From: Candidatus Hodarchaeota archaeon
GTDB taxonomy: Archaea > Asgardarchaeota > Heimdallarchaeia > Hodarchaeales > Hodarchaeaceae
Reading direction: 5' to 3'
Assembly: GCA_016839815.1 (NCBI GenBank)
Contig: JAEOTM010000204.1
Coordinates: 32,001 to 96,000 of the forward strand
DNA: 64,000 nt
Shown here: one piece after another, positions 3,245 through 32,676 of the stretch
Position numbering within the stretch: position 1 is the stretch's first letter
Layout: each line of letters opens with the position of its first letter
Made by a program: the position numbers and the translations under genes
Notes under the pieces: model-generated
Told to the model about the DNA's origin: nothing
What the model saw: only the letters and a program-made list of their open reading frames with translations
Database searches by the model: none

Positions 3245-3280
3245 TTATTTGTTCGAGGGTTCTGTTCTTGGTGGCATCAT
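3245..3280 (-). CDS. Putative 11-aa micro-ORF MMPPRTEPSNK, upstream of the ATPase
   Basis: ATGATGCCACCA...AAATAA with TTATAA about 28 nt upstream (leaderless spacing). Same length, MMPP start and K-TAA end as 16452-16487. Confidence 0.3.
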   Translation of the reverse strand: MMPPRTEPSNK

Positions 3281-3401: not shown

Positions 3402-3752
3402 TTATTCTTTTGTCCAATTGCGCTTTTTATTAATTTCTTCTTTTTCTCGAAATGCCTCTTCCAAATCGATACCATACCGATTAGCAATTGCGCATAGGAA
3501 AATAAAAACATCCACTAATTCGTAAGATATTTGAGATGTATTCGAATTCAGGTCAATATTTAATCCTTCTTTCTTACGTACAGCTTTAAATAATTCTCCT
3601 ACCTCTTCTCCGAGTAGTAAGCATTTGTCAATGACTGATTGATCTTTAAAGTCTCTCTCCTGTTCTAGTTCAGCCACATACTTTTGATAATCAATCAAAG
3701 GTGGATTTACTTTAAGAAACGGCATTAGATATTCTCTTTCCTTCCAGGCCAT
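3402..3752 (-). CDS. MazG-like all-alpha NTP pyrophosphohydrolase
   Basis: LGEEVGELFKAVRK...ELVDVFIFLCAIAN motif. Confidence 0.9.
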   Translation of the reverse strand: MAWKEREYLMPFLKVNPPLIDYQKYVAELEQERDFKDQSVIDKCLLLGEEVGELFKAVRKKEGLNIDLNSNTSQISYELVDVFIFLCAIANRYGIDLEEAFREKEEINKKRNWTKE

Positions 3753-3777
3753 TTTCTTATACGATAATATTCAAACT

Positions 3778-4299
3778 TTATTGCCTCAGTATCATATCAG
3801 AATAAGAAATATCAATCAAGTCTTCTGCAGGGATTTGGAATAACTGTTGATAATAATCACATTGTTCCTGTAATTTTGCAGTACCAATTGATCCATCACT
3901 ATCAATTGCTTCTACTTCGACGAAATTTCCAAGATTCTTCACAGTATCAATATGAAATTTGACATTATCAATAAAAAAGATTTCACGCTCTTTATCGACA
4001 ATTGTTAACACACCTAAGGTTTTTATCAAGATTTCTTTTAATGAAGAAGTGTTATCTGCTTCAGGATGATGAAGAATTACTGTCGATTGCTTAGCATTTG
4101 CCACATTAGGCCTTTCATAATGAATCAATGCATTTTCAATATTTCCTTCCCGAAGCTTTAAGCGTCCAGATTGCACTTTGAAGTAGGTGTCAATTTGGTG
4201 ATCTTTTCCCTTAAAAAATGGATCTTTCGATAATAAGATCGACCGGATCTCCTTGGAATTCCTGCAATGAGCCTTAAACTCAATATTGATGTGTATCAT
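3778..4299 (-). CDS. CYTH-domain protein (class IV adenylate cyclase-like triphosphate tunnel enzyme)
   Basis: NIEFKA, QIDTYF, RLKLRE and FVEVE motifs. Confidence 0.9.
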   Translation of the reverse strand: MIHINIEFKAHCRNSKEIRSILLSKDPFFKGKDHQIDTYFKVQSGRLKLREGNIENALIHYERPNVANAKQSTVILHHPEADNTSSLKEILIKTLGVLTIVDKEREIFFIDNVKFHIDTVKNLGNFVEVEAIDSDGSIGTAKLQEQCDYYQQLFQIPAEDLIDISYSDMILRQ

Positions 4300-4983
4300 C
4301 TAGAGTAAATCCCTAATTATCCCTAAAACTTTTTGTATGGATTCTTCGGATTCTTCTGTGTTATTAAAAGGAAGGCGGATTACTTTCATTCCGCGACTCC
4401 ATGCTGGATAGGCCGATTCGATTTCGGATAACAACTCCAAATAGCCCTGTTCTAATTCTTGAAGATAAGCCAGAGGAATAAGATCTCCACGTTCAGCTTT
4501 CCGATCTCTATTCTTAATTCGGTGTTGGGCAATTTCTGGAGATACTTCCATAAAAATAATAACACTGGGAGGGATGAGTGAATTGGTCATAACTGAATAC
4601 GCTCGTTCGTAAATAGCCCATTCAATTTTATCCATTTTTCCTGCGTTATACAACATCTTAGCAAAAACACGATCACCTGGAAGTCCTCTATCAATAACTA
4701 CTCCCTTTCCTGTAATAGATTCAAAAGAACCCAGTTTTTGTAATGCATACCGGCGATGGAGAAGATCTATCTGCATGGCAAACGCCCAGCGGTCCTGATC
4801 TTTGTAAAACATTTCTAGTAATTCTAAATTTACAGGTTCATATATAGCACGAAAATCTAGTTTTCTGGAAATAGCTTTGGTCAATGTAGTCTTACCACAC
4901 CCAATTATCCCTTCAATCCAGATAACTGGTTTAGGGGTTGCTTCAAAAAGCTTATCTAGTTGAGTTTCCATTGCATACGACAT
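4300..4983 (-). CDS. Deoxynucleoside kinase
   Basis: IEGIIGCGKTT P-loop, YEPV, DR...DRVFA motif, lid RIKNRDRKAE. Confidence 0.9.
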   Translation of the reverse strand: MSYAMETQLDKLFEATPKPVIWIEGIIGCGKTTLTKAISRKLDFRAIYEPVNLELLEMFYKDQDRWAFAMQIDLLHRRYALQKLGSFESITGKGVVIDRGLPGDRVFAKMLYNAGKMDKIEWAIYERAYSVMTNSLIPPSVIIFMEVSPEIAQHRIKNRDRKAERGDLIPLAYLQELEQGYLELLSEIESAYPAWSRGMKVIRLPFNNTEESEESIQKVLGIIRDLL

Positions 4984-14852: not shown

Positions 14853-16382
14853 ATGAGTAAGATAGAGAATTTGAAGAAAAGCCTCAACACTATCTTACTC
14901 CAATTTCCCAAGTTTGTTGAAAAATATTCACTAGAGGATCAGCAATTAATAGCTGAGTTTTTAAATGTAATAAAATTTTATGAGGAGGCAGATAACCGTC
15001 GAAATGTACTATTAGCACGCTTTACGGAATTTATCACTAAAACGAGAAATAGAAAACAATACTACGACTTACCCTTTCTCGGATTAACTGTAGTAATCGC
15101 AGAGAACGCAGTATATCACTTAAGTATTGCACGATTCTACCCCTTGGAGTTTTACAACTCACTTTTACAGCAGCTTCGGCCCCTTTTTCAACTTATTAGG
15201 CGAATAGAACCATTAATTAGCTTGAAGTATGAGGAAACACTCCAGGCGACAAGAAGTCTGTACTCACCATTATCCTCTGATGAATATCGACTGTTACAAT
15301 ATACATATTCTCTTCTAAAATCAGAAGGATTAACATCTTTAAATTCTAATTATATTAAAACAGAATTTGGAAAAAAAGAAGATATTCCCAGACGATTAAA
15401 AAAGGAAATAGAAATTTCTCGTTTTTATACATTAATTGAGGGCAGATGGTGGATTCATTTTCATTTTCCAGCCTTTGGATTAAGTCAAGTAGTATTTCAT
15501 TTTGAATTAATTGATAACACATCATTAATTGATCTAATTGACCTTAATAATCCGAATAACACAGTTTTAACCTATAGTAACGTTTTTCAAGTTTTGAATT
15601 CAAACAGTGAATATATTGGTATTTTCACTATTCCCAATAACGATATTAATCTTCTTAAGGATCTTTTTCAACGGTATGAACAGAGTAGATTAGTCAAACG
15701 AAAAGAATTAACTGTAATCAGTCATCGACTAAGGAGTACATCTTTTGATTATTATAAGGAGGAAAAGGGGTGGAGGAACTTATCAGCTAACAAAAAACAA
15801 AGTATTAAACAAGTATTGAGTTCTACAGATCCTGAAGTATATAATTTGGAGCAGAGTTCCTTTAATATTCCAAATTTTAACAATTCAAATTGGTCATTCT
15901 CTGAACACCAATCTCCTGAAAAAATTATCAAATTTTTTTGTACAACACCTTCTGAATTCGCTTATACAGGTCTTCCATTAAACATACCTTCATCAGACTA
16001 TCCTAACTCTCTTAATAGGGATGACATTGAGTTAATACATTATTTTTATTCACAAAAGGTATTAAGTATAGGTTTTATTCCTTGGCGTTTAATAGATGAT
16101 TATTCGTTAAATATCTATGTTGTAAAGGTTCCAGCTGTGCCATTAGCGAAGTTAGAGCACTTCTTAAGTGTTATTCCTTATGCCGAGATTTATTTTGCTC
16201 CAGATAGTTACTATCTGTGGACCGTTCTCCCACCCACTATAATCAGCTGGATAAAAAATACTCTTAAATGGTCTATCATTCCTGTACAACGAATTCATGT
16301 AAGACAGGAATTAACATCAGAGTGGTTTGATACGAAATCACTATTATGGACTAGACCTGAAATTTTGGGACGAAATAAGTAA
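14853..16382 (+). CDS. ~500-aa putative tandem Lrp/AsnC-like (wHTH+RAM) regulator
   Basis: Motifs align by eye with 31219-32676: FHFPAFGLSQV vs LDMGKLGYETY, STSFDYYKEEKGW vs SWNLSTLQEGKNKW, FLSVIPYAEIYF vs FCLTLPHIDLF. Confidence 0.55.
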   Translation: MSKIENLKKSLNTILLQFPKFVEKYSLEDQQLIAEFLNVIKFYEEADNRRNVLLARFTEFITKTRNRKQYYDLPFLGLTVVIAENAVYHLSIARFYPLEFYNSLLQQLRPLFQLIRRIEPLISLKYEETLQATRSLYSPLSSDEYRLLQYTYSLLKSEGLTSLNSNYIKTEFGKKEDIPRRLKKEIEISRFYTLIEGRWWIHFHFPAFGLSQVVFHFELIDNTSLIDLIDLNNPNNTVLTYSNVFQVLNSNSEYIGIFTIPNNDINLLKDLFQRYEQSRLVKRKELTVISHRLRSTSFDYYKEEKGWRNLSANKKQSIKQVLSSTDPEVYNLEQSSFNIPNFNNSNWSFSEHQSPEKIIKFFCTTPSEFAYTGLPLNIPSSDYPNSLNRDDIELIHYFYSQKVLSIGFIPWRLIDDYSLNIYVVKVPAVPLAKLEHFLSVIPYAEIYFAPDSYYLWTVLPPTIISWIKNTLKWSIIPVQRIHVRQELTSEWFDTKSLLWTRPEILGRNK

Positions 16383-16451
16383 GATTAAAGATGTGTTCTG
16401 TAGAAAAAAAAAGGAGGAAATATAAGGAATAGTATCCTTAAGTTATCACAA

Positions 16452-16487
16452 TTATTTACCGTTTCCACGGTCTCCTGGGGGCATCAT
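16452..16487 (-). CDS. Putative 11-aa micropeptide MMPPGDRGNGK
   Basis: GC-rich 36-nt ORF in an AT-rich spacer. GAGGT RBS 7 nt upstream, TTAAAAAG about 35 nt upstream, minus-strand T-tract at about 16404-16412 downstream. Confidence 0.5.
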   Translation of the reverse strand: MMPPGDRGNGK

Positions 16488-16650
16488 CTTAAAGACCTCA
16501 ATTCTTAGATTTGAAAGAGCTTTTTAAGAACCTTAAAATCCACCCAGTGTCACTAAATATTAAAGAGATAAAATAAAAATAATTAATACACTTCTGCAAA
16601 CTGTTTATGAAAATAAATATTAAACTGAAGAACAGGATAACTTACTCTGG

Positions 16651-18747
16651 ATGAAAGGGATAATGAACTCACAACAAAAGGGAGAAAATCAAACTGAGGA
16701 AATCCAGATGGTTGAGCGTATGATTAGAGAGGGGGAATATAACGACGCTCTATCACTAATCAATACAGCCATAGATAAGTTACCGAGTAATTATCGTCTA
16801 GAAGATGAAATTCAGTATAAATTACCGAAAACAGAAATTTTAATACATCAAGGTAAGTATAAGAAAGCTTTAGAGATAATAAAACCTTTAAATGCTCAAA
16901 TTATAAATGTAGAAAATTGTATTTTAAAAATAAGGATTATCACAGTTTATGCTGATGTATTATACTATTTAGGAACTTTCACAGACGGATTGGAAGTTCT
17001 GTCAAATGGGGAGAAGTTATTGGAGGAAGCATTGTCATTTACCAATCAGAATTGTTCGAAAGAACAAGCACATTTATTGAAAGTGAAAGGAAAGATTTTA
17101 GAGAAACTGGGAGAGGAGGAAGAGTCATTAGCTCATTATCAGAAGAGTCTAGCATTATTTCAGGAGATTAAAGATCAAATAGGAATTTCTTCAATTTTGA
17201 ATAATATAGGCATAATTTATCGTAAACAAGGGGCATTAAACCAAGCATTGGAATATTATCAACGAAGTTTGGCCATTAGAAAGCGATTGGATAATAAACT
17301 TGACATTGTTGCCACTCTTAATAATATTGGGATTATTTATATGTTCCAAGGTGACCTGAATAGGGCTTTAGCTCATTATCAGGATGCACTGACTATCCTA
17401 GAGGAAATTGGGCATAAACAATATATGGCCGCAATCAACAACAATATAGGAAATATTTTTTTCGATAAAGGGGAGCTAGATACTGCTTTCAGTCATTATC
17501 AAACAAGTTTAACCTTATGGGGAGAATTAGGCCATCAACAATATAATGCTTATGGAATTAACCACCTTGGTAAAATCCATAGACGGAAAGGTGATCTTGA
17601 AGAGGCATTAGTCCATTATCAACAGGCACTATTATTATTAAATGAAATCGGGAATAATCTGGATATTTCAATCACCTTATTCGATCTTATTTCGACTGCA
17701 TTAGACAAGAATGATGATCAGCTTGCACAGGAATATTTACTGGCTTTAAAACAGATAAAAGAGCAAGAAAAAAATAGAGTAATCGATCAAAGATATCGAG
17801 TGGCAAAAGCTCTACAATTGAAAAATGATGAACGATCTCGAAAGAGAACTAAGGCCGAAGAATTACTGGTTCAGGTTATTAATGAAGAAATTATTGATCA
17901 TGAAATAACTGAATATGCTATGCTTAATCTGTGCGAATTATATATCGATAATCTAAAACGTACAAATGATAGAACCATTTTAATGAAGGTACAGAAGTTA
18001 GTTTTAAAATTATCAGAGGTAGCAAAAGATCAACATTCACATTGGTTAATAGCAGAGGCCTATTTTCTAAAAGCGAAACTATTCCTAATTGATTTAAATC
18101 TCGATAAAGCCCGCGAATTCTTAGGACAAGCGCAGATTATAGCTGAAGAACGAGGAATGAAAAATCTTGCAATGAAGATATCATATGAGCATGATTTACT
18201 ACTCCATGATCTACCCAAGTATGCTGAACTTAGCGAAAAAGACGCCCCCTTAGCCGAACGATTGGAATTCGCAAAATTAGATCATCTTATCAAACGATTA
18301 ACACATATGCGATTATTAGAACTTCCAGCGCTGAAAGAAGAAGAACCAGTATTAGTTTTGGTAATGGCGGAAAACGGATTAAGCTTATTTTCAAAACCAT
18401 TTCTTCCAGAAGGAGAAATCAACCCTCAATTATTTGGAGGTTTTCTTTCTGCTATCCACTCCTTTTCAGAAGCGGTTTTTTCGAGAACATTGGACCGTGC
18501 CCTCTTAGGTGAATATACCCTTGTCATGAAAACAGAAGAACCTCTACTAATGTGTTATATCTGTAAAGGACAGGCATTCTCTGCTCTTCAGAAGCTTAAT
18601 CAGTTTATCCAACATACCACTAAATCTGATAAGTACTGGAATGCTCTATTGCAAGGGAGTCAAACAGGAAAAACCCTTGATAACTCAGACTATGCGTCTC
18701 TTGAACATTTGGCCAGCTCTATCTTTTCACAAACAAGAGAAGAGTAA
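16651..18747 (+). CDS. TPR protein with C-terminal longin-like domain
   Basis: Repeated LNNIGIIY...G.L..AL.YYQ.SL TPR units. C-terminal VLVMAENGLSLFSKPF...LFGGFLSAIHSFSEAVF resembles Asgard longin-like domains. Confidence 0.85.
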   Translation: MKGIMNSQQKGENQTEEIQMVERMIREGEYNDALSLINTAIDKLPSNYRLEDEIQYKLPKTEILIHQGKYKKALEIIKPLNAQIINVENCILKIRIITVYADVLYYLGTFTDGLEVLSNGEKLLEEALSFTNQNCSKEQAHLLKVKGKILEKLGEEEESLAHYQKSLALFQEIKDQIGISSILNNIGIIYRKQGALNQALEYYQRSLAIRKRLDNKLDIVATLNNIGIIYMFQGDLNRALAHYQDALTILEEIGHKQYMAAINNNIGNIFFDKGELDTAFSHYQTSLTLWGELGHQQYNAYGINHLGKIHRRKGDLEEALVHYQQALLLLNEIGNNLDISITLFDLISTALDKNDDQLAQEYLLALKQIKEQEKNRVIDQRYRVAKALQLKNDERSRKRTKAEELLVQVINEEIIDHEITEYAMLNLCELYIDNLKRTNDRTILMKVQKLVLKLSEVAKDQHSHWLIAEAYFLKAKLFLIDLNLDKAREFLGQAQIIAEERGMKNLAMKISYEHDLLLHDLPKYAELSEKDAPLAERLEFAKLDHLIKRLTHMRLLELPALKEEEPVLVLVMAENGLSLFSKPFLPEGEINPQLFGGFLSAIHSFSEAVFSRTLDRALLGEYTLVMKTEEPLLMCYICKGQAFSALQKLNQFIQHTTKSDKYWNALLQGSQTGKTLDNSDYASLEHLASSIFSQTREE

Positions 18748-21047: not shown

Positions 21048-21701
21048 TCAGTCATCTGATTTTTTGGATGATTTACATGTAGGAATGATGTTGAATAGGT
21101 GTGAAATTAACCGAAGAAAATAAGAAGTAAGATAAGCACGATAAAGGGAGAAGAATAGCGCAATTGACTTAAGAATTTCTTTAGCGGGATGAGTAGAGGG
21201 ATAGATGACGTTTCGTGCTAAGGATGAAAAAACGTGGGCAATTTCGGGACACGATTTAGACCGACATTCAAAATACTTCCCGTTGAAAGATTTAGCAACC
21301 ATCAAAGCTTCTTCATGGGATACAACAGGTGAGGATGAAGTAATTCCAACAAGAGCAAGGGGAACTTCTGGTAGGATATATTTTTGAAATTCAATTATAT
21401 GGTTGGGAATTTCTAAAAATGATTTTCGATTATTTCGATCAAAAAAGATGATACAGGCCGAAGCTCCACGATAATAACTAGGTCTCAGTTTACCAAAGAA
21501 TTCCTGTCCAGCTGTGTCTACTATGATCAATTTAACCCCGATACCATTTAGAGTGATCTTTTTTGTAGTAATATCGACGCCCAATGTTGGTAAATAATTT
21601 GTGTCAAACTTATTTTCCGCAAAGCGTCGGATAAGGGGGGTTTTTTCCACGCTCCCAGACCCTATTGCACATATTTTCAAGAGATATTCATTTGAATACA
21701 T
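21048..21701 (-). CDS. Rab-like small GTPase with altered G1 and G4
   Basis: GSGSVEKTP (G1 variant), YLPTLGVD, DTAGQEFF, YYRGA. No NKxD. Confidence 0.85.
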   Translation of the reverse strand: MYSNEYLLKICAIGSGSVEKTPLIRRFAENKFDTNYLPTLGVDITTKKITLNGIGVKLIIVDTAGQEFFGKLRPSYYRGASACIIFFDRNNRKSFLEIPNHIIEFQKYILPEVPLALVGITSSSPVVSHEEALMVAKSFNGKYFECRSKSCPEIAHVFSSLARNVIYPSTHPAKEILKSIALFFSLYRAYLTSYFLRLISHLFNIIPTCKSSKKSDD

Positions 21702-22030
21702 CAGTAACTAGCTCAGCTAGAATCCAGCTTTTATAGCCGACGAAATCCACCATTCGTTTTATGGTTAACTAGTATGATCGATAACAGTTAAAGAATTAAC
21801 TAGAGAATGTATTCGAGAAAAAGGGTATACGAAAAATAGAAAAAAGAGGAATACTACAAATATTAACCAGTATTGTGTTATTCACCTCACTACTTTAGAA
21901 TCCCTCAAGATAGTCGAAAATCCTTTTAGAAAATTGTACGAACTAGGAGGTACAGGTACTTTTAAAGTGGAAAAAATCGTCAATTTGCAGGGAAAAACAC
22001 ATTCTCCTAGCAATACCTAAGGGTGAGAAG

Positions 22031-24706
22031 TTGCCTATATTTAACAGGTATCTATTCAAGAAACTCATTAGAGATTCCGGAAGGACAAAATTATTAGTAA
22101 CATCTCTCCTTCTCTTGAGCATTATTGGGGTGGCATCATATATTGCTTTAGTAATGGGATATCAATCTCTTGAGTACTCGTATGAGCGATTTTACATAGA
22201 AAGTAGCTTCCACGATTATGAAATTCAGGCAACGGAAGGACAATGGTTAGATCAAAGCCAGCTGAGTACCCTTACTGAAGGTTTCCTAGTACAAAATACT
22301 GCTATCCAGGCGATTAATTACCGTTTGTTAATAGAAAGTGGTTATAACTATTCTAAGAAAGACATCTTCATCACTGGGGCAGGAAAGATTGTAGGATACA
22401 ATACAAGCACTCCGTACGAACAGCAAATTAACCGTTTATCCATTAAAGATGGAAAGGAGTACATCCCGAATGGAAACTCGAGTATCTCATCGAATGGATC
22501 ATCGAATCAGGTCATAGTGAACAACCAATTTGCAGACAGGCTAAATCTAAAAATTGAGGACCAGATTACCCTTCGAATGAATAAAGGAAAACAGGTTACG
22601 ATACGAGGAATTGCGTATTCCCCAGAATACGCTGTGGTTATTCCTTCTAAGTGGGGATCTATCATTCCGATGAACCAATATGGAATATTTTACATGCCAC
22701 TTTCCACTGTTCAGATGGATCTTAACTTAACAGGGAGAATTAATAACATTCTAATTAAATTTATACCAGAAACCACAGATTTGGTACAAAAACAAATCAT
22801 AAAAGATTATCAGAATTTAATCATACAATCATTAAACGTCAGTCTCCTTGATCCTGTATCATCAGAATTTCAAGTCTCTAATTGGTTTATAAGACTGAAT
22901 ATTGAAGGATTCAGAGAAATTGCACAATTCTTACCCTTTCTTGTATTGTGTGTGGCCACTCTTACCATTTTTGTATCGTTTAATCGACTAATCTATCACC
23001 AAAAACGTGAAATTGGGGTCATCCTCTCCTTAGGATTTACTCCAAATGATATTCTTATCCATTATATCAGCTATATCCTAATAATTGCTGGAATTGGAGC
23101 CATTTTAGGAACAATCACAGGGATATTCTTCACTCATGTGGTTGCGAGTTTTTTCGGGATAATCTCTTCGATTCCACATATATTAGTTAAGATTGATCCC
23201 TTGGTTATTCTCTTTGCAGGTTTAATGGGATTTCTAGCTTCTTTTATTGGCGGATTCTATCCAGCTTTTATTGGAAGTCGCTTAAATCCAAAACAGGCAA
23301 TAGGGAATTACACTAAAGCACTAAACCTTGGAAAATTGGCAAAATTAGGGATTATTGACAAATCTCGTCTTAATGTACAGATAAAGATGTTATTTAGGAA
23401 CATCTTCAGAAATGGATGGAGAAGTCTCACAAACACCATGGGGGCTGCAGCTACCATGATAGTTCTATTTATATCACTTACTCTACTCTTTGCCATGACG
23501 ACAACTATAAATACAGAATTTAACCAGATTAATGATTACGATCTAGAACTTACATTTACAAAACCGAAATTAGGAGATTTAAATCTTTATAGTGAATTAT
23601 CAAAATTAAAAACTATAAAGACGGAATATGGAATAGAGGCTTACGACTGTGTTTTGGAAATTCCAGTAATTTTTTTTTCCGATGACCTAAAAAAGTCAAA
23701 TGAAGGAATGTTAATTGGATTTAATTCCAGCACTCCTATCACTCACAATTTTAAGTGGGATACTCAGTTTTCTACTCAGTGGGAGAGTCCTAAATCAACC
23801 ATAGTGTTAACATCCGGACTGGCAAATTTTTTCGGACTTGAAAATAGTGTAGACAATGAGATAGTTGTAAAACATCCACGAGTACTTAGCGTAGAAGAAG
23901 AACTGTGGTTACGATTATTTTATTTCCAGAATGGAAGAAATACAACTCTCACTCTATTACAGGATCAATTCGAGGATAGTCCATATGTAATGAACTACAA
24001 TCAAAGTACTGAGTTCCAGACAAAGAACAGTCGAATCTCTGTTGGTGGAGTATCAAAAGAACTCTGGGGAACAATGAATTACGTTTCATTAGACAAAATG
24101 ATAAGTATGTTAGGCCTGAGTTTATTTAATGAATTAGGAATCGATCTGACTCCAGTGTCGAAAATTTATATCAAACTCAATTCACACGGAATAAAATTTC
24201 AATCACAAATTGAAAGTAAACTATTATCCACTCTGAATGATATTGAGTCTATTACAACAATAACACAAATTCAAGAAGGAACGGAAGCGTACTTAGAAAT
24301 TTTAAATGTCTTAATCCTTCTCCTAATAATTGTAGCTATTATAATTTCAATCTTATCACAAATAACAACCGTTTTTCTCAATACTCATGAAAGAAAGAAG
24401 GAACTCCTAACTATGCAAGTCCTAGGATCCTCAGATTTTGAAATTTCGTTTGGTTTCTTAGCTGAAAACTTACTTCTTACAGTACTTGGATTGATATTAG
24501 GGGCCCCTATTGGCTTCAGATTGACCCAAATGATCGTTACTACCATGTTCCCAATGATGGTGTATCTTCACATCACATTCGAGGTTGAAATTGTCATTCT
24601 CATTATTCTAAGTGTCATAATAACAAGTATTGTTACTCAAATTCCCACATTATTATCTCTTTTCAAATTAGATTTATCATTGATCTCAAAAGAGTTTATT
24701 GGATAA
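22031..24706 (+). CDS. FtsX/MacB-like ABC permease with two repeats
   Basis: QKREIGVILSLGF and ERKKELLTMQVLGSS motifs, with large extracytoplasmic loops. Confidence 0.88.
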   Translation: MPIFNRYLFKKLIRDSGRTKLLVTSLLLLSIIGVASYIALVMGYQSLEYSYERFYIESSFHDYEIQATEGQWLDQSQLSTLTEGFLVQNTAIQAINYRLLIESGYNYSKKDIFITGAGKIVGYNTSTPYEQQINRLSIKDGKEYIPNGNSSISSNGSSNQVIVNNQFADRLNLKIEDQITLRMNKGKQVTIRGIAYSPEYAVVIPSKWGSIIPMNQYGIFYMPLSTVQMDLNLTGRINNILIKFIPETTDLVQKQIIKDYQNLIIQSLNVSLLDPVSSEFQVSNWFIRLNIEGFREIAQFLPFLVLCVATLTIFVSFNRLIYHQKREIGVILSLGFTPNDILIHYISYILIIAGIGAILGTITGIFFTHVVASFFGIISSIPHILVKIDPLVILFAGLMGFLASFIGGFYPAFIGSRLNPKQAIGNYTKALNLGKLAKLGIIDKSRLNVQIKMLFRNIFRNGWRSLTNTMGAAATMIVLFISLTLLFAMTTTINTEFNQINDYDLELTFTKPKLGDLNLYSELSKLKTIKTEYGIEAYDCVLEIPVIFFSDDLKKSNEGMLIGFNSSTPITHNFKWDTQFSTQWESPKSTIVLTSGLANFFGLENSVDNEIVVKHPRVLSVEEELWLRLFYFQNGRNTTLTLLQDQFEDSPYVMNYNQSTEFQTKNSRISVGGVSKELWGTMNYVSLDKMISMLGLSLFNELGIDLTPVSKIYIKLNSHGIKFQSQIESKLLSTLNDIESITTITQIQEGTEAYLEILNVLILLLIIVAIIISILSQITTVFLNTHERKKELLTMQVLGSSDFEISFGFLAENLLLTVLGLILGAPIGFRLTQMIVTTMFPMMVYLHITFEVEIVILIILSVIITSIVTQIPTLLSLFKLDLSLISKEFIG

Positions 24707-24800: not shown

Positions 24801-26228
24801 ATGGTTTCTTCAAGATTCTATTTGATTCTCATTTTAACCTCATTTTTTGCATTTTTCCTTGGACAAATAAGCACAATAACAGTGACATACCAAATACTAC
24901 AAGATCCTATCCCAGATTATATTTTTTATAATGGAACTGTTATTACCATGGAAAATAATCAACCTAGTGCGGAGGCAGTTGCGGTTATGGGAAATCTCAT
25001 TAGTACTGTTGGAACAGAAGCAGAAGTTTTTTCTTACGCTGATTCTACAACCGTATTGATCAATTTACACAAAAAAACACTGGTTCCAGGATTTATTGAT
25101 TCGCACTCTCATTGGATTGGAGATCGTGGATTAACCAATACCACAGAATTGAATGATGTCATCAATGCCTTAATCTCTTATGGATGGACCAGTATTTCGG
25201 AGCTATTTGTAAATCAGGATCGGCTAACTGAACTCCAAGCTGTAGATGACTCTAACTTATTAAAAGTTAGAGTTAATTGCTATCTCCCTTTAGGTTATGG
25301 ATTTGATAGGTTTGGGGATTGGTATCAAGCTTATACTCCTGGTCACGAATTTAGCTCTCGGTTACGAATCGCTGGAGTGAAATTATTTGCAGATAGGTGG
25401 TATTTTGAACCTCTAATTCTGATCAATCAGTCTGAAATGTATCAACTGGTTCAAGAAGCGCATGCATTAGGATTTCAAATTGCTACACACAGCGTAGTTC
25501 CTAATGCAACGGATATTGTCCTTAATGCTTACCAATCGGTGATAGGTAGCGGAACAAATGAGCTTCGACATCGAATCGAACATCTGGTGTTGCTCAGAAA
25601 TGATCAAATTACGAGGTTGGCAGAACTGGCGATTCTTGGATGTATTCAGCTTCCTTGGTTTAATTCAGATTGGAATGATAGAATTGAACCTGCAATTGGT
25701 AGAGATAGGGCACTTCTGGTAGGACGATGGCGAGATCTACTTAATGTAGGAGTTCACCTCATGGGGAGTACTGATTATCCGTACGTCCTTGGGGAGGTAA
25801 AGACTCCAATGGGTTGTTTAGCCTCTGCGGTCACAAGGATAGGTACATTGGGTGAGACTCCTGTCGACTTTATGTTAAACGAAAGGATAACTCCTGAACA
25901 AGCTTTACGTACATTGACCATAAATGGTGCTTACGGAACTTTCCAAGAAAATGTAAAAGGCAGTATTCGATTTGGCAAGTTAGCTGATTTGGTCGTCTTA
26001 TCAGACAATCCTCTAATGGTTCCTGAAACCAATATCCAAGATATTGAAGTACTATTAACAATGATTGATGGAAAAATCGAATATTTGAATCCAGAAGGTC
26101 CTGAAATTACTAATTTTCTCTCTAGTCGAACTGCTCCCATAAGCTCTGCAACATCAGTTGGGATTCTTCCTTTAATTATTACTTTTGGTGTCCTCTTCCA
26201 AATTAGAAATCTACAGAAAAAATCCTAA
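24801..26228 (+). CDS. Amidohydrolase family 3 (YtcJ-like), secreted and C-terminally anchored
   Basis: PGFIDSHSH, RHRIEH, GSTDYP, GKLADLVVL. Hydrophobic segments at both ends. Confidence 0.9.
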   Translation: MVSSRFYLILILTSFFAFFLGQISTITVTYQILQDPIPDYIFYNGTVITMENNQPSAEAVAVMGNLISTVGTEAEVFSYADSTTVLINLHKKTLVPGFIDSHSHWIGDRGLTNTTELNDVINALISYGWTSISELFVNQDRLTELQAVDDSNLLKVRVNCYLPLGYGFDRFGDWYQAYTPGHEFSSRLRIAGVKLFADRWYFEPLILINQSEMYQLVQEAHALGFQIATHSVVPNATDIVLNAYQSVIGSGTNELRHRIEHLVLLRNDQITRLAELAILGCIQLPWFNSDWNDRIEPAIGRDRALLVGRWRDLLNVGVHLMGSTDYPYVLGEVKTPMGCLASAVTRIGTLGETPVDFMLNERITPEQALRTLTINGAYGTFQENVKGSIRFGKLADLVVLSDNPLMVPETNIQDIEVLLTMIDGKIEYLNPEGPEITNFLSSRTAPISSATSVGILPLIITFGVLFQIRNLQKKS

Positions 26229-26271
26229 TCTCAAAGCTTGAACACTAAAGCAAGAATTCGGGATTAGGTTC

Positions 26272-26835
26272 TTAATCTTGAGTCAAGATCAATTCCGTAA
26301 GTCTAGTGAAAATAAGATCCATTTGTGATAGATCAGAAAGAGGACATTCAAAATAATGAAGATTAAGTGTCTTTGCTAATTGTTGGCCTTCCTCGGAGGA
26401 AATAGATTTATTGTTTCCATTCACCGCAACAAGACCTATGGGAACTAATTTACCTTGAATTTCCTGAAATTCGTGACACAATTCTTCAACTTTCTTAAAA
26501 GAATCAAGATCGCCTTTATCATAGAAAATAAGACACCCGTGGGCCCCTTGATAATACATACTACGTAACGCTTTATATTTTGCTCTTGAAACGATGTAAA
26601 TTTTCAATTTGACCTCAGTAGACCTTATCTTAACAGTCTTCAAGCCAAAATCGCTCCCTACAGTCGATGAATAATCAATTTTAAATGTAGAATCGGCTGT
26701 TAAACGGCCAAGATGTTGAATCAAGTGAAAATTGGTACCAATCATACAAATCTTGAAATTAAGTTTATCAGAGGTCATTTTACACAAACTCATACACTTC
26801 TCTCCACAAACTCCAAAATGAGAAGTGATCTTCAA
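26272..26835 (-). CDS. Rab-like pseudo-GTPase lacking the P-loop and G3
   Basis: FKICMIG, STVGSDFGLK, YYQGAHGCLIFYD and EEGQQLAK..NLHYFEC are retained. GxxxxGKT and DxxG are absent. Confidence 0.75.
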   Translation of the reverse strand: MKITSHFGVCGEKCMSLCKMTSDKLNFKICMIGTNFHLIQHLGRLTADSTFKIDYSSTVGSDFGLKTVKIRSTEVKLKIYIVSRAKYKALRSMYYQGAHGCLIFYDKGDLDSFKKVEELCHEFQEIQGKLVPIGLVAVNGNNKSISSEEGQQLAKTLNLHYFECPLSDLSQMDLIFTRLTELILTQD

Positions 26836-26921
26836 TTCGAAAATTTCAATTTACCATAAAATAAAGATTCTTATTCCACACGCTTCTAGAAAGAACGAGA
26901 TACTAACAAGGAGGTTTACGT

Positions 26922-27827
26922 ATACGCGCTTATGATTTTATTCAAACGAGTGTTTTTACTGATGATCGATATGGATTCTCGGGAAACCAGTTGGCAACGT
27001 TTTGGAATCTAAAAGAGAATGATCTAACACAGGAAGAGATGCAAGGTATTACTCGTGAAATGAATTTCTCTGAAACAACATTTGTATTTCCCTCTACAAT
27101 TAAGAAATGTATTAGAAAAGTACGAATTTTTACTCCAGGTCTTGAAATCCCATTTGCAGGCCATCCAACATTAGGAACAGCATTTGTATTAAAACATCAA
27201 GATATACTTAGTCATGATCAAATGACAGCATTTTTAGAGTTGGGAATCGGTCCAATTGAGGTGAAATTTAAAACAAACCATCATATACAGATGTATCAAT
27301 CGAAACCTGAATTTCAGGAAGTATTCGAGGACAAAGAAGTAATGGCACAAATTTTAGGAGTATCTCCTGGCGTAATTGCAGATTATGGACCCATGCAATT
27401 TATTTCAACAGGTTTTCCATTCTTAATCGTCCCTATTACCACACTAAAAGCGATTCAAGCAATCAAACTTAATTCAACTCTTTTGATGGACACTTTAAGC
27501 AACTATCCATCTCAGGATTTAGTAGTGCTTACCCCTGAAACCATTCATCCTGATTCACAGGCACATGTGCGAATGTTTGCGCCATCTGCTGGAGTTTTTG
27601 AGGATCCAGCTACAGGAAGTGCAGCTGGACCGATTGGAGGATATATTGAAGCCCATAGAATTCTAAAAAATCATGTTAAGGGGTCAAAAATATCTTTAGA
27701 GCAGGGACATGAGATTAATAGACCAAGTAAACTTATTGTAGAGTGCCTCTTCGAAAAAGAGGAATTTCAACAAATAATTGTTGGTGGTACAGTGAAGTTA
27801 ACTGCGGAAGGAAGATTTGTGCTCTAG
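26922..27827 (+). CDS. PhzF-family isomerase/epimerase with an apparent ATA start
   Basis: EMNFSETTF, EIPFAGHPTLG, EDPATGSA. The conserved VFT...GNQLA N-terminus lies upstream of TTG 26991. GGAGGT sits 6 nt before ATA 26922. Confidence 0.88.
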   Translation: MRAYDFIQTSVFTDDRYGFSGNQLATFWNLKENDLTQEEMQGITREMNFSETTFVFPSTIKKCIRKVRIFTPGLEIPFAGHPTLGTAFVLKHQDILSHDQMTAFLELGIGPIEVKFKTNHHIQMYQSKPEFQEVFEDKEVMAQILGVSPGVIADYGPMQFISTGFPFLIVPITTLKAIQAIKLNSTLLMDTLSNYPSQDLVVLTPETIHPDSQAHVRMFAPSAGVFEDPATGSAAGPIGGYIEAHRILKNHVKGSKISLEQGHEINRPSKLIVECLFEKEEFQQIIVGGTVKLTAEGRFVL

Positions 27828-30936: not shown

Positions 30937-31131
30937 TTAATACCCAATAGGGGGATAAGGTCCTTCTAGCGGGTCAGCTATCCCTTGACTGAGAGCAAAG
31001 AATGTTACAACCAGCCAAAGGGTGATCCAGAAGATTTTCATCCAATTTTTTCGCTTCGGGATTCGATTAAACACTTTTGGTCTCCTTCTGTATAATTTGT
31101 CAAAAAGGACTCTGAGCAATCTACTGCTCAA
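30937..31131 (-). CDS. Small secreted pro-peptide candidate; predicted mature tail DPLEGPYPPIGY
   Basis: Basic n-region, hydrophobic core, SQGIA putative cleavage site, 12-aa Pro/Gly-rich tail. Alternative ATG at 31041. Divergent from the 485-aa regulator. Confidence 0.6.
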   Translation of the reverse strand: MSSRLLRVLFDKLYRRRPKVFNRIPKRKNWMKIFWITLWLVVTFFALSQGIADPLEGPYPPIGY

Positions 31132-31218: not shown

Positions 31219-32676
31219 ATGCACCAAAGTCAGGAAGTAGAGCCTCTTTTTGAATCTACTGCCATTGTAGATCCTTTTGTACGAGATTTCTGTGCATTTT
31301 GGGAACACATTCACACCGAAGTGATAAAACGTAGGGTACGGAAAATATCGAAAACCGCAGAAATCACTCAAGCTCTCAAAGATGTCCAAACTATTCGTTT
31401 TTATGAAAAGTACAAATCTCATCCCTTACTTGAATACTCGGAAGCGTGGATGAAAACATTGGGGTCATTCTCAATCCTCTGGTATGGAGGTCGTGTGTTA
31501 ATTCCCCTTCGATTAGTAACTTATGAGCTAGCATATGCACAGGATCAATTATTACATACGTTCTTGAAGAATATCTCAACCAATCAGATCCAAGGAAATG
31601 AGGAGACCTTATTTCGGGTTCTTTTTCCCAAGTTACTTGAAATGGCACTTCCTTTATCTAAATCAGATCTTATTTTATTGAAAGGATTCCAAACGGCATA
31701 TATAAAAAGTCAGAACCGTCGAACTGGACCCTCCACTCAAACCTTTGCATACCATATTCCGGAATTAAACGCTGAGACGATCCGCAATAAACTAGAATAT
31801 TTCCGTTATTTTCAGCTAGCCATCCCTATGCATTTTCTCGATATGGGAAAATTAGGTTATGAAACATATCTAACAGTCCATTCGAGCATGGTACCTGACC
31901 AGCTTTCACGATATTGCCTAATAGATATCAACATGGGAAGTGCACGATTAGGCCTTTTCCAACTGCCTTATAGTAGACCGGAACTACTTACACTTCTAAA
32001 AAGCACTCAAAGTGAGGAATACCCTACTCCTTCAAAATTGATTCCTATGACCCGAAGAGTGCATTCGTGGAACCTTTCTACTCTCCAAGAAGGAAAAAAC
32101 AAATGGATAAAACCCTATTCATTTTTTTATGGGGATCCTTCTTCCCCTCCACAATTCGCTCCTGCCACCATGGACATGTCCCTAGATCCATTGTTCCAAC
32201 CTTTCCGTCCATTAACTCATGCAGATGTAATTTTGCTTTCTTTTCTTGTATCTGTAGGAAAAATTCTCAGACTCAAAGATTTAGCCTCTCAAGTTCAGCT
32301 GCATCCCAATACAGTATCAAGGCTTTTAGCTGAATATCAAAAGGCTGGTTTACTCAATCAAATAGTCCAATATTACAATCTAGGCTTAAATCTCCCAGTT
32401 TATCTTTTCATTTCGATACCAAATACTACTAATCGTATTCACTTCCTAGATTTCTGTCTTACTCTCCCCCATATTGATCTTTTTACAACAACCACTACTG
32501 AAGAATCAGTGTACTTCGGCCGAACTGATCTTCCTCATTTTTGGTGTCGAGATTTTGTAACACGATTGCAGTTTTTACGTAACAAGTATTCCGAGATGTC
32601 TTTTCATTATACCTTTGAACCTCCTTTAGTGATACGACGAAATCTCTCCCTAATGGACACTTATCAACAATCTTAG
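31219..32676 (+). CDS. ~485-aa putative tandem Lrp/AsnC-like (wHTH+RAM) regulator
   Basis: Two HTH-like segments (LNAETIRNKLEYF; LKDLASQVQLHPNTVSRLLAEYQKAGLL), each followed by an Lrp-like linker (DMGKLGY; YYNLGL). Confidence 0.65.
   Translation: MHQSQEVEPLFESTAIVDPFVRDFCAFWEHIHTEVIKRRVRKISKTAEITQALKDVQTIRFYEKYKSHPLLEYSEAWMKTLGSFSILWYGGRVLIPLRLVTYELAYAQDQLLHTFLKNISTNQIQGNEETLFRVLFPKLLEMALPLSKSDLILLKGFQTAYIKSQNRRTGPSTQTFAYHIPELNAETIRNKLEYFRYFQLAIPMHFLDMGKLGYETYLTVHSSMVPDQLSRYCLIDINMGSARLGLFQLPYSRPELLTLLKSTQSEEYPTPSKLIPMTRRVHSWNLSTLQEGKNKWIKPYSFFYGDPSSPPQFAPATMDMSLDPLFQPFRPLTHADVILLSFLVSVGKILRLKDLASQVQLHPNTVSRLLAEYQKAGLLNQIVQYYNLGLNLPVYLFISIPNTTNRIHFLDFCLTLPHIDLFTTTTTEESVYFGRTDLPHFWCRDFVTRLQFLRNKYSEMSFHYTFEPPLVIRRNLSLMDTYQQS

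Follow-up and report, generated by a model that had tools for sequence, protein, structure and literature searches.

We examined a very short open reading frame (ORF) in a 64,000-nucleotide (nt) stretch of DNA, hereafter the window, from a Candidatus Hodarchaeota archaeon (contig JAEOTM010000204.1, positions 32,001 to 96,000). The ORF lies on the minus strand at 16452-16487, and its 11 codons and stop (ATG ATG CCC CCA GGA GAC CGT GGA AAC GGT AAA TAA) specify the peptide MMPPGDRGNGK. It converges on the gene of a 509-amino-acid (aa) protein on the plus strand (14853-16382). We conclude with high confidence that this micro-gene is a real, selected coding gene that is genetically coupled to the 509-aa gene. 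Comparison across loci shows that the two make up a tail-to-tail cassette that is duplicated and passed on as a unit.

Codon-level selection and inheritance of the micro-gene

We collected 69 homologues of the 509-aa gene from 22 genomes of the genus and scored as a micro-ORF any convergent ORF starting with M-P-P or M-x-P-P. Such an ORF is found 3-161 nt past the stop codon of 53 of these 69 family genes; it has the form M-(x)-P-P-x-D/G-G/P..., with a length of 10-12 residues in 49 of the 53. In a placement scan, 52 of 67 genes had a micro-ORF in the convergent downstream position, and none of the 67 had one downstream on the same strand or upstream on either strand. The genome background for an M-(x)-P-P micro-ORF is 0.76% of 250-nt windows. 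The three closest homologues of the 509-aa gene carry opposite-strand micro-ORFs downstream (MMPPGDRGNGGK; MMPPSDRGSDGK; and, at one locus, MMPPRDGPDSGL plus MMAPNDHGNDGK), each with a GAGGTC site and a TATA-like box.

We also searched the 22 whole genomes at E <= 0.01 with a model built from the micro-gene sequence only. This gave 76 matches, 58 of which are convergent to a family gene and mostly 35-160 nt away from it. The other 18 matches include three at contig ends, one beside a decayed family gene, and five that correspond to an orphan copy near a TFB-like gene. The family tree shows the micro-gene in almost every lineage, the deepest ones among them, with absences mainly in three long-branch clades (median root-to-tip distance 1.96 vs 1.42), a contrast that comprises few independent events and is therefore descriptive only. 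Paralogous cassettes within one genome all encode different peptides. Of the two neighbors that had been proposed as targets of the peptide, it is the 509-aa gene to which the micro-gene is specifically tied, and the two have passed down the entire family tree as a pair. Separately, family genes that have decayed to copies with in-frame stops or to short remnants lie beside model-matching micro-genes at G021:C96:7534-8653 and G016:C90:2132-2305 (genome, contig, and positions), indicating that a micro-gene can outlive its partner.

Homologues of the 509-aa protein occur in all 21 of the other genomes of the genus that we searched, usually in several copies and in up to 10, and no match was found in 19 genomes outside the genus. 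A hidden Markov model of the family, run against 61 genomes of the class, detected members in 21 of 21 genomes within the genus and gave one weak partial match in 38 others, and only 191 matches emerged when 1.84 billion representative proteins were searched with a profile. The micro-gene model and the partner family were both found in 21 of the 21 other genomes of the genus. Beyond it, the micro-gene model matched only once in 38 further genomes of the class, at the N-terminus of a 442-aa ORF, and we rejected this match as a false positive. Among the genomes searched, the peptide family and the partner family are restricted to the genus. We found no published description of a micro-gene paired with a tandem-Lrp gene.

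Codon-level comparisons indicate that the ORF is a selected coding sequence. Family-wide, the GC content at the three codon positions after the PP codons is 0.70/0.62/0.20, a pattern that is not imposed by the rule used to select the ORFs. Comparison of the window ORF with its orthologue at locus L021 revealed 7 synonymous differences over 7.0 sites (proportion of synonymous differences, pS, 1.0) and 0 non-synonymous differences over 26 sites (pN 0), together with one in-frame codon indel; the partner proteins at these two loci are only 50% identical. Conservation between orthologues is uneven, and the window clade keeps its peptide far better than its protein. Among pairs of similar micro-ORFs, differences fall on the three codon positions in the ratio 25/23/48, and the peptides share the consensus M-(M/x)-P-P-x-D/G-G-(G/P)-(P/G)-G-x-K. 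Strong purifying selection acts on the peptide of the window clade and on two other copies tested at the codon level. Conservation of codons at orthologous loci had been set beforehand as the check on the original prediction, and the synonymous-only differences and the GC bias by codon position confirm it. From these sequence patterns, we consider it highly likely that the ORF is a selected coding sequence.

The ORF is very short, which would fit an incidental reading frame lying over a conserved promoter/terminator pair or a non-coding small RNA. Such an explanation is extremely improbable given the strong triplet periodicity and a pN/pS near zero with saturated synonymous sites. The indel preserves the frame, the start, ribosome site, and stop position are conserved, the type of stop codon varies while its position is kept, and no conserved RNA fold was found. 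A structured RNA was considered and rejected: no Rfam family reached its gathering score in the whole window, single-sequence folds of the spacer were no better than those of shuffled sequences (z -0.2 and -0.8), and RNAalifold predicted no pairs on 52 aligned micro-genes. We also found no tRNA or tmRNA in the window. A repeat or mobile-element end was likewise rejected, as the spacer DNA occurs only once in the genome.

Expression signals and a probable antisense arrangement

The micro-gene is accompanied by a compact set of expression signals on its own strand. A Shine-Dalgarno-like GAGGTC (16494-16499, minus) lies 6 nt 5' of the first ATG. The promoter region (16520-16546, minus) contains the TATA-like sequence CTTAAAAAG (16528-16520), a second TATA-like box, ATTTTAA (16539-16533), and, directly 5' of the latter, a TGGGTG motif (16546-16541). 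A T9 tract (16412-16404, minus), which is likely to be the oligo-T terminator of the micro-gene, is located 39 nt past the micro-gene stop and 21 nt short of the stop of the 509-aa gene (16380-16382). The 3' untranslated region (UTR) also contains an inverted repeat, AAGGA-N6-TCCTT (16424-16439, minus), that precedes a C/T-rich stretch and the T tract; by eye, several relatives have hairpins of differing sequence at the matching place. The local GC content peaks at 55% over the micro-ORF, between flanks of ~25-30%, in a genome of 4.24 Mb and 36% GC. The micro-ORF is divergent from the next gene on its other side (16651-18747, plus). The ribosome-binding site, TATA-like box, and downstream T tract that had been described for this ORF are all found at the positions given for them, and the earlier view of a complete, self-contained transcription unit is upheld.

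Across the family, a TATA-like box is located ~30-38 nt 5' of the ATG, and its distance from the ribosome site is constant at 20-22 nt in the closest orthologues. GAGGT or GGTGA is found 5-9 nt 5' of the start in most of the 53 relatives, and TGAGGTC is enriched 60-fold. A tract of five or more T (median T7) follows 45 of the 53 micro-genes, at a median of 35 nt past the stop and always inside the spacer, so that the micro-gene RNA should end before the partner coding sequence. On the sense strand of the partner, 37 of the 53 loci have no tract of five or more T before the start of the micro-ORF. At most loci, the mRNA of the partner is therefore likely to extend over the micro-gene in antisense. 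The promoters of 17 of 52 family-linked micro-genes contain the motif [TA]GGG[TA]G, positioned at -46 to -48 relative to the ATG, vs ~2% of controls; the motif could be an element resembling the transcription factor B recognition element (BRE) for a special TFB, or an operator. No enriched k-mer is shared between the micro-gene promoters and the promoters of the family genes themselves.

The tail-to-tail arrangement has parallels among bacterial antisense systems. The type I toxin-antitoxin loci txpA/RatA and bsrG/SR4 consist of convergent sense and antisense pairs that overlap at their 3' ends, and the RNAs of the micro-gene and its partner would overlap in the same manner. The two arrangements differ in their components: here the small partner is the gene of a hydrophilic peptide, and the large one encodes a 509-aa regulator-like protein instead of a small membrane toxin.

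The 509-residue partner and possible roles of the peptide

We built an AlphaFold2 model of the 509-aa protein from the family alignment (predicted local distance difference test score, pLDDT, 91.3). The model shows a generic N-terminal four-helix bundle (residues 1-125) and, over residues 142-509, two fused Lrp/AsnC-like modules, each consisting of a helix-turn-helix (HTH) and a RAM-like alpha/beta domain. The order of secondary structure in the model fits two HTH plus beta-alpha-beta-beta-alpha-beta RAM modules. In a Foldseek search, the only significant PDB matches were to the sirohaem decarboxylase NirDL (top match 4ch7, E 7.6e-5), and VIA-align superimposed residues 142-509 on 4czc_A with a Z score of 12.3 (271 residues aligned, root-mean-square deviation 5.1). 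Within the family, E127, Y301, and W307 are invariant.

Sequence searches gave a different picture. The 509-aa protein of the window has no Pfam or NCBIfam match, and no AsnC-type HTH or RAM match was detected in 63 family members at E <= 0.05; the only Pfam matches in these members are to nine unrelated families, none of which recurs in a second member. A search of the family profile against all PDB sequences returned no NirDL or AhbAB at E <= 1 and nothing usable. A language-model search, which we treat as a lead only, pointed to Asgard clusters with HTH_24 or HTH_AsnC-type domains (scores 0.84-0.87). According to the structural model, the description of the protein as tandem Lrp-like holds at the level of the fold only. 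The original prediction of a tandem Lrp-like regulator is accordingly retained for the fold, in view of the similarity to NirDL, and is not supported for sequence-level Lrp/AsnC domains, none of which was found in the 63 members.

Comparison with solved and characterized proteins of this fold suggests where a ligand could bind. Lrp/AsnC (feast/famine) regulators bind their effectors at the interface between two RAM domains (PMC2995911). NirDL is described as a fusion of two Lrp/AsnC-like modules, and the NirDL/AhbAB scaffold as binding a large ligand (PMC4145669). The 509-aa protein resembles the Lrp/AsnC regulators in combining an HTH with a RAM-type alpha/beta module at the fold level, and differs from them in having a 125-residue helical bundle followed by both modules on a single, fused chain. 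Its best structural match is NirDL or AhbA-AhbB (4ch7, 4czc), in which two Lrp-like modules likewise form one unit; unlike these proteins, it has an extra N-terminal bundle, occurs in multiple copies, and is restricted to the genus among the genomes searched, with 10% identity to NirDL in the structural alignment and no profile match. No haem-pathway gene is present among the annotated neighbors, the pathway not having been searched genome-wide, and synteny around the family varies.

The role that we favor for the peptide, tentatively and at somewhat less than even confidence, is that of a ligand or effector of its tandem-Lrp partner. The coding and coupling evidence, the predicted fold of the partner, and parallels with other systems speak for it. 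The leaderless peptide would be made in the cytoplasm and bind the partner protein of its own cassette. The likeliest binding site would be the asymmetric cleft where the two Lrp-like modules meet, the place at which single-module Lrp proteins bind amino acids and NirDL binds a large ligand. Binding of the peptide would switch the regulatory output of the partner, and the antisense 3' overlap of the partner mRNA may add a second layer of mutual control at the RNA level. In contrast to the amino acid and metabolite effectors of Lrp/AsnC regulators, the proposed effector would be a gene-encoded peptide. A broader proposal, that in Hodarchaeota each paralogue of the fused double-Lrp regulators responds to its own gene-encoded, leaderless Pro-Pro dodecapeptide in an intracellular or cell-to-cell peptide code, seems to us doubtful.

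The closest working analogue is the leaderless peptide-RopB pair. In Firmicutes, leaderless 8-residue peptides encoded by 24-bp ORFs beside a cytosolic receptor are proven signals (PMC10518010). As in the LCP/SIP-RopB system of the RRNPPA family, the ultrashort ORF described here directly encodes the peptide, without a signal sequence or pro-sequence, has its own expression signals, and adjoins the gene of a cytosolic regulator-type protein; the peptides differ between pairs and were missed by annotation. Ultrashort leaderless ORFs of the RRNPPA type, 10-12 codons long and mostly 35-160 nt from the partner, are present at 53 of the 69 loci. The analogy fails as family membership on the fold of the receptor: RRNPPA receptors have a tetratricopeptide repeat (TPR)/HTH architecture, whereas the partner is predicted to consist of a helical bundle and a tandem Lrp-like fold and has no TPR or HTH_3-type Pfam match. 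The present peptides further differ from the LCP-RopB pair in their hydrophilic, Pro/Gly/Asp-rich composition, invariant M-x-P-P start, archaeal host, and strictly convergent orientation. No transporter gene is conserved in the neighborhood of the micro-gene and its partner.

Several observations weigh against an effector role. The hydrophilic, Pro/Gly/Asp-rich peptides are unlike the known RRNPPA peptide ligands, and the partner has no DNA-binding domain detectable by sequence, with an enzyme as its nearest solved relative. The TGGGTG motif is common to a third of the micro-gene promoters, which points to a common factor and not to a paralogue-specific one. In several lineages, the tail of the peptide evolves more rapidly than the partner protein (e.g., 42% vs 68% identity), a difference that fits diversification or weak sequence constraint alike. 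The peptide family is also not exclusive to the Lrp-like partner, as members occur as a leader of a HerA-like gene and beside a TFB-like gene (see below).

Alternatively, the peptide could be a substrate or precursor, comparable to a ribosomally synthesized and post-translationally modified peptide (RiPP) or a cofactor, with the NirDL-like partner serving as an enzyme or scaffold. The nearest solved structure would agree with this assignment, being an enzyme on the Lrp fold (PMC4145669). The lack of a recognizable DNA-binding signature in the partner sequence and the three family-invariant residues would agree with it as well. Precursor genes can also be as short as this one: the mccA gene of microcin C7 has 7 codons. 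We nevertheless see only a slim prospect for this alternative. The peptide has no leader, no separate leader and core, and no conserved Cys/Ser/Thr pattern or modifiable core, and its tail varies freely between paralogues. No maturase domain was found in the partner or its neighbors, the conserved neighborhood contains no gene for a known maturase, transporter, or immunity protein, and the partner profile lacks sequence similarity to NirDL/AhbAB.

Other contexts of the peptide family and neighboring genes

Members of the peptide family also occur away from the 509-aa family. A second such ORF in the window, MMPPRTEPSNK (3245-3280, minus), is a leader located 32 nt 5' of a HerA-like ATPase gene (PF01935; 1077-3212, minus). 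The leader is kept in four other genomes, as MMPPRTEPTNK in two and as MMPPRTEPSNK and MMPPRAEPTNK in one each, with synonymous changes at Arg (AGA/CGT) and at several Pro codons and a stop that may be TAA, TAG, or TGA. These copies share a TTTGGGTGTTTATTAATC promoter with TTTGGGTG in front of the TATA box, and the spacing of the TATA box suits a leaderless or very short-leader mRNA. The [TA]GGG[TA]G motif, directly 5' of the TATA box, is also present in four of the five HerA-leader copies. Genes of a deoxynucleoside kinase, a CYTH-domain protein, and a MazG-like pyrophosphohydrolase lie directly 5' of the leader and the HerA-like gene (3402-4983, minus); this run could be a nucleotide-centered, possibly defense-type gene cluster.

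The HerA leader bears on the main rival to an effector role, in which the micro-gene would act in cis as a translation sensor and antisense module. Slow, aIF5A-dependent translation of the peptide would set the stability or termination of an RNA of ~100 nt; this RNA, complementary over its full length to the 3' UTR of the 509-aa mRNA, would control that gene, and the HerA copy would control its downstream ORF. Depletion of eIF5A stalls ribosomes at PP, GG, PG/GP, and D-P/G classes of motif, and eIF5A also promotes termination (PMC5499558). In the micro-gene family, 57% of the residues past the PP motif are Gly, Pro, or Asp, so that the peptides are rich in the stalling classes PP, GG, PG/GP, and D followed by P or G, much as in polyproline/eIF5A-dependent upstream ORFs and arrest peptides, which are short and dominated by PP, GG, PG, and D-x-P/G. 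The ORF at 3245-3280 is a true leader, length and composition are better kept than the exact sequence of the tail, and the distribution of T tracts, with none on the sense strand before the micro-ORF at most loci and that of the micro-gene always before the partner stop, would suit antisense control.

Unlike regulatory leader ORFs, the copy at 16452-16487 is convergent, has its own terminator in the T9 tract, and is followed by no downstream ORF on its strand. Residues outside the stalling classes are fixed through saturated synonymous change (Arg, Asn, and Lys in the window clade; His and Phe in the orphan copy), an observation that is not decisive against a cis-acting sensor since arrest peptides can be sequence-specific too. 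No conserved RNA structure that would link translation to termination was found. We regard a cis-acting role of this kind as rather unlikely.

HerA-like genes also occur next to the cassette itself. In one clade, comprising 10 of 52 cassettes (L013, L015, L016, L017, L028, L031, L032, L034, L036, and L039), a HerA-like gene ends 46-433 nt 5' of the micro-gene on the same strand, giving the layout HerA-like gene, micro-gene, and facing tandem-Lrp gene. A further context is provided by the orphan copy M(N/S)PPQDHPPGF, found in the same genome outside the window (C32:43921-43956, minus) and at four other loci (L075, L078, L079, and L081). It has the same layout of promoter, ribosome site, and T tract, and is convergent with the TFB-like gene, which encodes a zinc ribbon and a weak TFIIB repeat match; no family gene lies nearby. 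Over the five genomes, six of its codons vary synonymously and one non-synonymously. At L075, a gene for an EF1A-like GTPase of 509 aa is located ~800 nt from the orphan copy.

These contexts raise a further alternative, in which the peptide has a shared, non-adjacent target reached in trans and the linkage to the tandem-Lrp gene reflects only co-regulation or co-duplication. Candidates for such a target are a recognizer of the M-x-P-P N-terminus, the translation machinery, and the HerA-like ATPase. The conserved copies away from family genes, the HerA-like genes that end just 5' of some micro-genes, the M-x-P-P start that is invariant in all copies, and the motif common to some promoters would all be accounted for. 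We nonetheless judge a shared target to be distinctly unlikely, as convergence and the 35-160 nt spacing are kept through >50 duplications, with protein identity down to ~25%, and protein branches are longer in the clades from which the micro-gene has been lost.

On the other side of the micro-gene, the divergent gene at 16651-18747 (plus) encodes a TPR-repeat protein with matches to Pfam TPR_12 and related families. Its earlier description as a TPR-longin gene is correct for the TPR part; the C-terminal 148 aa have no Pfam match, and a longin domain is not confirmed. The same gene had been put forward as a possible partner of the peptide, a suggestion that we abandon, as no TPR homologue was found in the 13-17 kb that surround each of the three closest orthologous loci. 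The TPR gene is a neighbor only and lies outside the conserved module.

The window also contains the gene of a 485-aa protein (31219-32676, plus), a member of a second multi-copy family that occurs in each of the 22 genomes of the genus. Residues 148-485 of its model (pLDDT 85) can be aligned to the NirDL chain that the 509-aa protein matches (Z 12.7), and its C-terminal module matches many true Lrp/AsnC regulators (Z 6.4-7.3). Homology between the 509-aa and 485-aa sequences was tried and rejected (BLASTP E 1.5; hhalign probability 0.1% and 1.6%). The two had been called paralogs; they share a NirDL-like architecture (Z 12.3 and 12.7), and neither BLASTP nor profile-profile comparison relates them in sequence. 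A small divergent ORF beside the 485-aa gene (~30937-31131, minus) ends in ...ADPLEGPYPPIGY, a Pro/Gly-rich 12-mer, and this arrangement offers a parallel in favor of an effector role for the micro-gene peptide. In the window, the 509-aa, 485-aa, and HerA-like genes lie within ~30 kb of each other. One contig of a relative (G018:C28, with loci L021, L092, and L122) carries a 509-aa homologue (21519-23036), a 485-aa homologue (26130-27578), and a HerA-like orthologue with its leader ORF (47581 onward).

To our knowledge, annotation almost never captures conserved protein-coding genes as short as 10-12 codons, and only a few have been recognized in any organism. The micro-gene described here is one such gene, backed by >50 independent-looking copies with clear codon-level selection, and its partner in the fixed cassette comes from a family of regulator-like proteins without any match in Pfam or NCBIfam. 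Its hosts are Asgard archaea, which make up the archaeal lineage nearest to eukaryotes, and belong to the Hodarchaeota group, about whose regulation next to nothing is known. If the micro-gene is a translation sensor, it would represent a compact device of the aIF5A/polyproline type at the 3' end of a gene. If the peptide is an effector of its partner, it would constitute a new class of ligand for the Lrp/AsnC fold and the first case of an Lrp-type fold with a ribosomally made peptide effector. The pair would then be the first peptide-plus-receptor module in archaea, assembled from parts unrelated to those of the bacterial RRNPPA systems.

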